1,721 nucleotides of DNA from Escherichia coli (GTDB taxonomy: Bacteria > Pseudomonadota > Gammaproteobacteria > Enterobacterales > Enterobacteriaceae), in the NCBI RefSeq assembly GCF_003334815.1, contig NZ_QOWO01000095.1. The stretch is one strand, 5' to 3'. The notes under the pieces are model-generated. The model searched no databases and was not told the origin of the DNA. It was given only the letters and a program-made list of their open reading frames with translations. Below are positions 44-1,183 of the stretch, piece after piece (positions within the stretch are counted from its first letter, which is position 1; each line of letters starts with the position of its first letter). The position numbers and the translations under genes are program-made.

Positions 44-1183
44 ATGAATTTTGCTGCTCTTAAAAACAATACGGGTACTCTTTATCTGTCCAGTTTTAAT
101 CATGAGCATGCACCTGAATGCCCCATGTATCGTCAGTTATCCGGAAATGAAGAGGAAACATCCTTCGGAGCAAGCCGGCATCCCGTTAGCACCCGTATAA
201 ATTACAGAAACTTTTTACCACCTGATGACAGTAATTCTGTTATCAGACTGCAGGCCCGCTCTGCTTACCATAATGGTGAGCGCTCCTCCGTTCGCAAGAA
301 ACGTCCGCGCCTTGGCCGTTTACTCCTGTCGCTTATTGAAGATGCAGGGCTGAATAAACTGGATTCCCTGGCTAATCCCCGTATCCGGACTAATTATCGT
401 GAGTGTCTTGATGCCATACGGCAGGTTACACTACAGCAGGAGTATATTCGGGGAAGAGCCTTATCTGAAATTATCCATTTCCGGCCAGGAATGTCTGAAA
501 GGTCTCAGGAGCGGTTAATGGAAACGCTGGAGAATTCAGAACGACACTGGCCTGCCAGAAGAAAGCATATGTTCTTTCAGATTTTTATGGCGCAGCACAT
601 CTGTCGTGATGCTGTGGAAATTCACTGGGCGAACGGTAATATTCAGGTCATCAGACCTGTGCGGGGGATCAGTATTAATGGTGAAGCGCAGGGCGGAATA
701 CGTCCCCCTTACTGGGTTATTCTTGCTTTTTGCCGGAGTGCCGATGGCAGAATCATCTGCAGTGAAGGGTATGCTCATGCTCTTTATCAACTGACATGTC
801 CGGTGCCTGTGGACAGCAAACTGGAACGAAACACGCTCACTGCTCTTCTGAATGTGGCCAGCTGGCTTAAAAGAAAGCCAGGTACGCCGGAATTAAGTCT
901 GGAAAGGCCCCTGTTTGATACAGAAGTTTATGTTAATGGTGAAAAGAAATATGTACTGCCGGATTTCATTGTCACAGCAAGGGCTCCTGACGGAAAGACG
1001 GCCAGAGTGGTCATCGAAACGATGGGATATGAAGACAGTGATTACTGCGCGAGAAAATCCAGGCAGCATACCGGCATGAAGCAGATTGGTGTTCTGCATA
1101 CCGATCCACCGAAATGGCTGGATAACGATCATCCCCCTTTTAAGAAACATATGTACGGTGTTTTTATGCATCTCAGGTACTGA
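44..1183 (+). CDS. Uncharacterized protein, 379 aa; C-terminal region has a PD-(D/E)xK / Vsr-like endonuclease-type motif (tentative)
   Basis: Longest ORF in the window, ATG 44 to TGA 1181-1183, with no competing long ORF. A possible weak RBS, GGGAG at 28-32, lies 11 nt upstream of the ATG. The reading frame has no stop between position 2 and 44, so the true start could lie upstream of the window. Residues about 301-345 read YVLPDFIV...RVVIETMGYEDSDYCARKSRQH (D307 at nt 962-964, E325 at nt 1016-1018), the hPD ... hhhE pattern of restriction-endonuclease-like folds. I vaguely recall an unnamed backbone ORF (possibly called yagA) upstream of cib on IncI1 plasmids, but I cannot confirm this is it, so no symbol is given. 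Confidence 0.8.
   Translation: MNFAALKNNTGTLYLSSFNHEHAPECPMYRQLSGNEEETSFGASRHPVSTRINYRNFLPPDDSNSVIRLQARSAYHNGERSSVRKKRPRLGRLLLSLIEDAGLNKLDSLANPRIRTNYRECLDAIRQVTLQQEYIRGRALSEIIHFRPGMSERSQERLMETLENSERHWPARRKHMFFQIFMAQHICRDAVEIHWANGNIQVIRPVRGISINGEAQGGIRPPYWVILAFCRSADGRIICSEGYAHALYQLTCPVPVDSKLERNTLTALLNVASWLKRKPGTPELSLERPLFDTEVYVNGEKKYVLPDFIVTARAPDGKTARVVIETMGYEDSDYCARKSRQHTGMKQIGVLHTDPPKWLDNDHPPFKKHMYGVFMHLRY

Follow-up and report, generated by a model that had tools for sequence, protein, structure and literature searches.

A stretch of Escherichia coli DNA of 1,721 nucleotides (contig NZ_QOWO01000095.1 of assembly GCF_003334815.1; the whole stretch is referred to below as the window) carries most of yagA, a gene of IncI1 plasmids, and the C-terminal domain of its product, YagA, very probably has the restriction-endonuclease (PD-(D/E)XK) fold. 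The closest family supported by sequence profiles is Bax1/DUF790. The domain is, in our judgement, probably a metal-dependent nuclease with a site formed by E330, D376 and E394 and with a relocated lysine, K407; these residues are retained nearly throughout a family whose members are otherwise strongly diverged.

Gene identity and residue numbering

The window is found, at 100% identity, in many conjugative plasmids (IncI1/IncI-gamma) from E. coli, Salmonella and Shigella; it matched 1344 plasmid records, 1276 of which are predicted to be conjugative. It comprises the 3' 85% of yagA, an intergenic spacer, and the colicin Ia gene up to codon 86. In RefSeq the yagA product is listed as 'protein YagA' (WP_001132032.1; 448 aa), with an annotated start 164 nt upstream of the window (L001:4649-4812), behind an AAGGAG ribosome-binding site. 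The initial annotation of the window, which was made from the letters alone, counted residues from an internal ATG at window position 44 (Met70) and missed 69 N-terminal residues. Because the frame can be read from window base 2 on, the RefSeq start lies upstream, and the alignment of YagA homologs begins at residue 1-3 (M3 and L5 being invariant in 26 homologs), its residue numbers need to be raised by 69; the residues that it called D307 and E325 are D376 and E394, and the full-length numbering is used throughout.

Conserved residues of the C-terminal domain

The motif that suggested a nuclease domain in the first place, a hydrophobic strand ending in P-D followed by a hydrophobic strand with a glutamate, is present as described: YVNGEKKYVLPDFIVTARAPDGKTARVVIETMGYE is encoded at window positions 929-1033 (+ strand), inside the region 896-1093 to which the motif had been assigned, with codon gat (962-964) for D376 and codon gaa (1016-1018) for E394. 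Likewise, there is no lysine at the second position after the glutamate (E+2); the sequence reads E-T-M-G and is followed by ARKSRQH, as had been pointed out. When the 379-aa protein that starts at Met70 was shuffled 20,000 times with its composition kept, a pattern h-P-D-h...hhE (h, hydrophobic) appeared in 0.8% of the shuffles, a looser pattern h-x-D-h...hh[D/E] in 16%, and the strict form ending in E-x-x-G in 0.01%. These patterns were composed after the match had been seen, and the motif by itself is therefore moderate evidence only; it is the conservation and the structure results that make it real.

A word-indexed search gave 115 relatives of YagA, all of them from Enterobacterales, and a second word-indexed search with a profile of 67 sequences gave no relatives more distant than those of the first. 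When 1.84 billion cluster representatives (clustered at 50% identity) were searched exhaustively, 531 family members were obtained at E<=1e-3, mostly of 400-460 aa and down to approximately 23% identity. Two alignment sets were used for conservation, one of 26 homologs (33-59% identity) and one of 67 homologs (19-57% identity; mean column identity 25%).

In the set of 26 homologs, the residues D326, E330, P375, D376, F377, E394, T395, G397, Y403, R406, K407, Q410 and H411 are invariant. In the wider set, S327, E330 and P358, as well as an acidic D or E at position 326, are found in 67/67 sequences; D376 and G397 are found in 66/67, and P375, E394 and Y403 in 65/67. The conservation of the two acidic residues, by which the initial annotation had proposed that its reading be judged, is hence borne out in both sets, and any of the four residues E330, D376, E394 and K407 is missing in just two of the 67 members. 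Of D376 and E394, the first stands where core strand 2 begins (the PD motif) and the second on strand 3, as is characteristic of the PD-(D/E)XK superfamily. The lysine of the canonical (D/E)-x-K signature is absent from the family, position 396 (E+2) being M in 59/67 and K in 0/67 sequences. The idea that this lysine had migrated into the basic segment that follows holds at the level of sequence: K407 within ARKSRQH is kept in 66/67 homologs, is among the best-conserved residues of YagA, and aligns with a lysine that all three solved Bax1 orthologs have. At position 357 (window 905-907), in the K-P motif on the first core strand, YagA of IncI1 plasmids has Arg, versus Lys in 66/67 relatives.

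Predicted structure

An AlphaFold2 model was calculated from the alignment of 26 sequences and reached a mean predicted local distance difference test score (pLDDT) of 81.4 and a predicted template modelling score (pTM) of 0.71, with the ten-residue blocks of residues 321-400 scoring 84-95. The C-terminus is predicted as helix 328-345, strand 352-356, hairpin 362-366/369-373, strand 377-382, strand 388-395, helix 401-414 and strand 419-423. This predicted arrangement is a restriction-endonuclease core with one inserted hairpin, and the fold, whose absence from a structure prediction had been named as grounds for discarding the initial reading, is not refuted. In the model, E330 is located where the first helix starts, D376 immediately precedes a strand, E394 comes close to the end of the strand after it, and K407 is on the second helix; judged by the topology and the alignment, the four residues would cluster in space. 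The span 896-1093 holds the aspartate and the glutamate, but the core begins earlier, as the DSxLE helix (residues 326-330) lies outside it.

Upstream of the nuclease-like domain, a putative zinc-binding motif (C60-x-C62...H91-x3-C95) is predicted in the N-terminal part, with C60, C62 and H91 invariant and C95 found in 64/67 homologs; judged by this pattern, the Cys2-His-Cys residues may well bind a metal. The codons of C60 and C62 (window 14-22) lie before the start codon that the initial annotation had assumed. The middle region is helical and beta-rich, without a solved relative.

Relation to Bax1/DUF790

YagA as a single sequence gave nothing significant in Pfam, NCBIfam, PADLOC, PHROGs or the sequences of the Protein Data Bank (PDB). 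Sub-threshold matches were obtained to DUF790 (PF05626) in Pfam (E=0.3-0.4; residues 369-415) and to the BPTD_3080 restriction endonuclease model in NCBIfam (E=0.05-0.07; residues 365-409). When the homologs were scanned singly against DUF790, 33/67 matched at E<=0.1, among them 8/67 at E<=1e-3, with 5.2e-5 as the best value. The 26-sequence profile retrieved no nuclease from the PDB, and Bax1 was reached by the wider profiles only: the full-length 67-sequence profile, searched against the whole PDB, retrieved only Bax1 chains (five entries; AfBax1, E=0.0028), and a profile of the C-terminal domain retrieved AfBax1 (2.4e-4), PfBax1 (4.4e-3) and StBax1 (0.034), with the best four matches all to Bax1.

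The family consensus 'vrPDFilev...krvviEtmGyddeeYlerKart' aligns with AfBax1 297-334, which puts D376 opposite AfBax1 D305 and E394 opposite E318. In Bax1, the nuclease domain binds metal through E275, D305 and E318, which are superposable on E5/D36/E50 of VRR-Nuc; E275 is the Motif I residue in AfBax1, and cleavage was reduced or abolished in the D305A mutant (D301A in S. solfataricus Bax1) (PMC7293015). YagA has the same three-motif E/D/E arrangement, for which we propose E330 as the third metal ligand; its Motif I (D326-S-K-L-E330) aligns weakly with 'DSSLERE' of PfBax1 (residues 260-266), a segment that is low-scoring on its own.

Bax1, like YagA, has no lysine at E+2; AfBax1 reads 'VYIEIAG' (E-I-A-G), versus E-T-M-G in YagA. 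A Y-(L/I)-x-x-K segment in Af, Pf and St Bax1 stands where YagA has Y403-C-A-R-K407. In VRR-Nuc, Hjc and type II restriction enzymes the lysine is on the third strand (E-x-K), whereas in YagA and Bax1 that position is taken by a small or hydrophobic residue, and it is the next helix that carries a conserved lysine. As the lysine-less third motif is shared with an experimentally active family, it is not a sign of decay, and the alignment suggests a catalytic role for K407. Bax1 differs from YagA in its architecture (an XPB-binding N-terminal domain and a Cas2-like domain) and in having the helicase XPB as a partner.

Relation to DUF1173 and PF27227

In a survey of 2010, DUF1173 (PF06666) was described as PD-(D/E)XK-related, with an N-terminal CxCxnHx3-5C zinc motif and a C-terminal nuclease-like domain, and was linked to DUF790 and DUF1064 (PMC3045609). 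YagA and DUF1173 share this two-part plan, i.e. CxCxnHx3-5C followed by a PD-(D/E)XK-related domain within about 400-450 aa. Foldseek against AFDB50 returned full-length matches to many models named DUF1173 (E 1e-23 to 1e-27; 18-24% identity), as well as the Swiss-Prot fragment P04481 ('uncharacterized protein in cib 5' region'). One homolog of 53% identity (P0027, UniProt) and one AlphaFold DB entry of 41% identity are also named DUF1173. The PF06666 model itself gave no match to YagA at E<=10, and 3/67 homologs match it weakly (E<=0.1).

Precomputed Pfam matches place PF27227 ('Endonuc-like_C') on P0001, the 99%-identical representative of the YagA cluster, and on nearly all full-length homologs, and extend to relatives at 19-25% identity, so that a public database already records the fold. 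With this Pfam entry, and with the literature having pointed towards it, the fold call is not new. What the sequence comparisons add is the specific link to Bax1, the candidate active site of four residues, and the retention of these residues in the YagA clade, unlike what has been reported for DUF1173.

Proposed activity and alternative explanations

In the proposed mechanism, a divalent metal would be bound by three acidic residues, which lie on the first helix (E330), where the second core strand begins (D376) and on the third strand (E394). K407 on the next helix would take the place of the absent E+2 lysine, as in the E-x-x-G...Y-x-x-x-K arrangement of Bax1. The zinc module and the middle region upstream would presumably select the substrate. 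The likeliest activity would be a Mg2+- or Mn2+-dependent cleavage of DNA, possibly of single-stranded or branched DNA as for Bax1, and this cleavage may act for or against the DNA of mobile elements. The fold, the homology to Bax1, the conserved residues and the placement in mobile elements are shown; that YagA binds metal, what K407 does, which substrate is cut and what the protein is for, we infer from these comparisons.

Several observations weigh against an active nuclease. YagA alone is not matched significantly by any nuclease model of Pfam or NCBIfam, and no family models for anti-phage defence (PADLOC) or phages (PHROGs) match. The Bax1 papers contain no discussion of the lysine that aligns with K407. 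In the literature searched, yagA is mentioned just as a landmark or as a site of insertion and in no case as the gene studied, and there is no experiment on YagA or on a member of its family. The gene is an insertion site for resistance modules, including ISEcp1-blaCTX-M (PMC4541600, PMC8004404), and of 1447 YagA protein matches in plasmid records, 1160 cover at least 80% and about a fifth cover less than 80% of the protein; as yagA is often interrupted or partial, its function is dispensable for the replication and maintenance of plasmids.

The main alternative is a nuclease fold that is catalytically dead and serves as a DNA-binding or protein-interaction module, as proposed for DUF1173, which we regard as unlikely. 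The DUF1173 domain was said to lack an active-site signature of the PD-(D/E)XK kind and to be perhaps only structurally related (PMC3045609), and the replacement of the E+2 lysine by M396, the R357 of YagA versus K in 66/67 relatives, and the frequent disruption of yagA in nature would all fit such a loss. In contrast to DUF1173, which was described without active-site residues, the YagA clade keeps each of E, D, E and K, in 97-100% of its members, in sequences that are otherwise 19-30% identical, and this is hard to square with a purely structural role; the lysine-less E-x-x-G motif, moreover, is also found in Bax1, an active nuclease. For the DUF1173 group, the view of 2010 that its relation to nucleases is one of structure only is qualified by the YagA clade.

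It is less likely still that YagA is an active PD-(D/E)XK enzyme with a substrate other than mobile-element DNA, i.e. an RNA nuclease or a growth-arresting toxin, like Can2/Card1 or the RAP-domain relatives. No CARF or other sensor domain and no PADLOC match were found, there is no conserved partner gene across the loci inspected, and the sequence profiles lead neither to Can2 nor to RAP but to the DNA nuclease Bax1.

The initial annotation had described the domain as Vsr/DUF559-style. Of this description, the restriction-endonuclease-like core is upheld by fold and conservation, whereas the attribution to Vsr/DUF559 is not: DUF559/Vsr in Pfam gave no match to YagA up to E=10 and is absent from the Pfam matches among the 67 homologs, and the likeness to the Vsr-like structures 3hrl and 3r3p is at the level of fold only. 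The Vsr/DUF559 motif is E-x-D-G...H, versus E-T-M-G in YagA, and the profile matches in the PDB lead to Bax1, so that a specifically Vsr/DUF559-type endonuclease is very improbable. A chance resemblance of the motif in an unrelated fold, in favor of which the frequency of the loose pattern among shuffled sequences could be cited, is effectively refuted already.

Genomic context

In the IncI1 layout, yagA lies between a divergently transcribed ProQ/FinO-family gene and the colicin gene. The former is located upstream of the window on the opposite strand (L001:3693-4295) and matches yafB/FopA, an RNA chaperone acting on the Inc antisense RNA of repZ (PMC7491321).

The neighborhoods of diverged homologs were inspected at twelve loci, a small sample that is biased towards long contigs; the loci are listed in Table 1 together with the features of the window. 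No partner gene is conserved throughout the twelve loci. Twice, in diverged F-type systems, the gene stands between traD, for the coupling protein, and the relaxase gene. The observations support that the YagA family consists of mobile-element genes (plasmids, integrative elements, islands), often placed in a DNA-processing module, and support nothing more specific.

Table 1. Features of the window (coordinates in window positions) and neighborhoods of diverged yagA homologs (coordinates within the respective locus)
Feature	Coordinates	Strand	Remarks
yagA, partial coding sequence	2..1183	+	residues 56-448 of 448 aa; stop TGA 1181-1183
Putative zinc-binding motif, N-terminal	14..121	+	codons 14-16, 20-22, 107-109, 119-121
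Probable restriction-endonuclease-fold (PD-(D/E)XK) domain, Bax1/DUF790 type	794..1180	+	residues ~320-448
Motif I, D326-S-K-L-E330	812..826	+	start of first core helix
R357-P358	905..910	+	first core strand; family consensus K-P
Motif II, P375-D376-F377	959..967	+	
Motif III, V-V-I-E394-T-M-G397	1007..1027	+	
Helix segment Y403-C-A-R-K407-S-R-Q-H411	1043..1069	+	
Likely intrinsic terminator of yagA	1210..1253	+	13-bp stem 1210-1243, then T-run; 27 nt after stop
Locus L010	7112-15536		between traD and TraI relaxase (TIGR02760, E=1e-195); 7-nt overlap with relaxase gene
Locus L013, Legionella fallonii plasmid	7111-16819		between traD and MobF relaxase; YagA-like protein 37% identical to that of L010
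Locus L007			between DsbA and SSB, coupling-protein and TrwC genes
Locus L012			beside divergent TrwC relaxase
Locus L014			head of F-type tra operon
Loci L015, L008			VirB11 or coupling-protein-like gene within 5-9 kb
Locus L011			adjoins integrase and topoisomerase III
Locus L009			integrase island at smpB
Locus L006			Rep3 plasmid
Loci L002, L004			no transfer genes nearby

Family members recur within modules for conjugative DNA processing, which hints at a role in the transfer of plasmids or in competition between them. As a tentative and rather doubtful extension, YagA-like proteins, with their zinc module, Bax1-type nuclease and a middle domain that may be OB-like, could represent an unrecognised accessory nuclease of conjugative DNA processing. 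Such an enzyme would cleave single-stranded or branched DNA while transfer or establishment is under way, or would turn against incoming DNA that competes. In E. coli and Salmonella, IncI1 plasmids are of major importance as carriers of AmpC and extended-spectrum beta-lactamase genes, and more than 1000 sequenced plasmids have yagA as a conserved part of their backbone; with the present assignment, a 'hypothetical protein' becomes a testable enzyme with an apparently intact active site.

Flanking signals downstream of yagA

Two terminator-like sites were found, versus 0.2 expected from shuffles, and a smaller hairpin at 1170-1186 overlaps the yagA stop codon. Colicin genes are SOS-regulated. 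No LexA box was found in the yagA-cia spacer, the long consensus being without a match at <=3 mismatches; the one-mismatch matches to CTGT-N8-ACAG are all located inside yagA and are near chance. In window positions 1360-1412 and 1463-1721, the colicin Ia start is preceded by a perfect -35 hexamer, TTGACA (1360), and a -10-like TAAATT. Beside these elements, TACTGTATAT (1392-1401) represents a perfect left half of the LexA-box consensus, with a degenerate right half (4 mismatches by eye).
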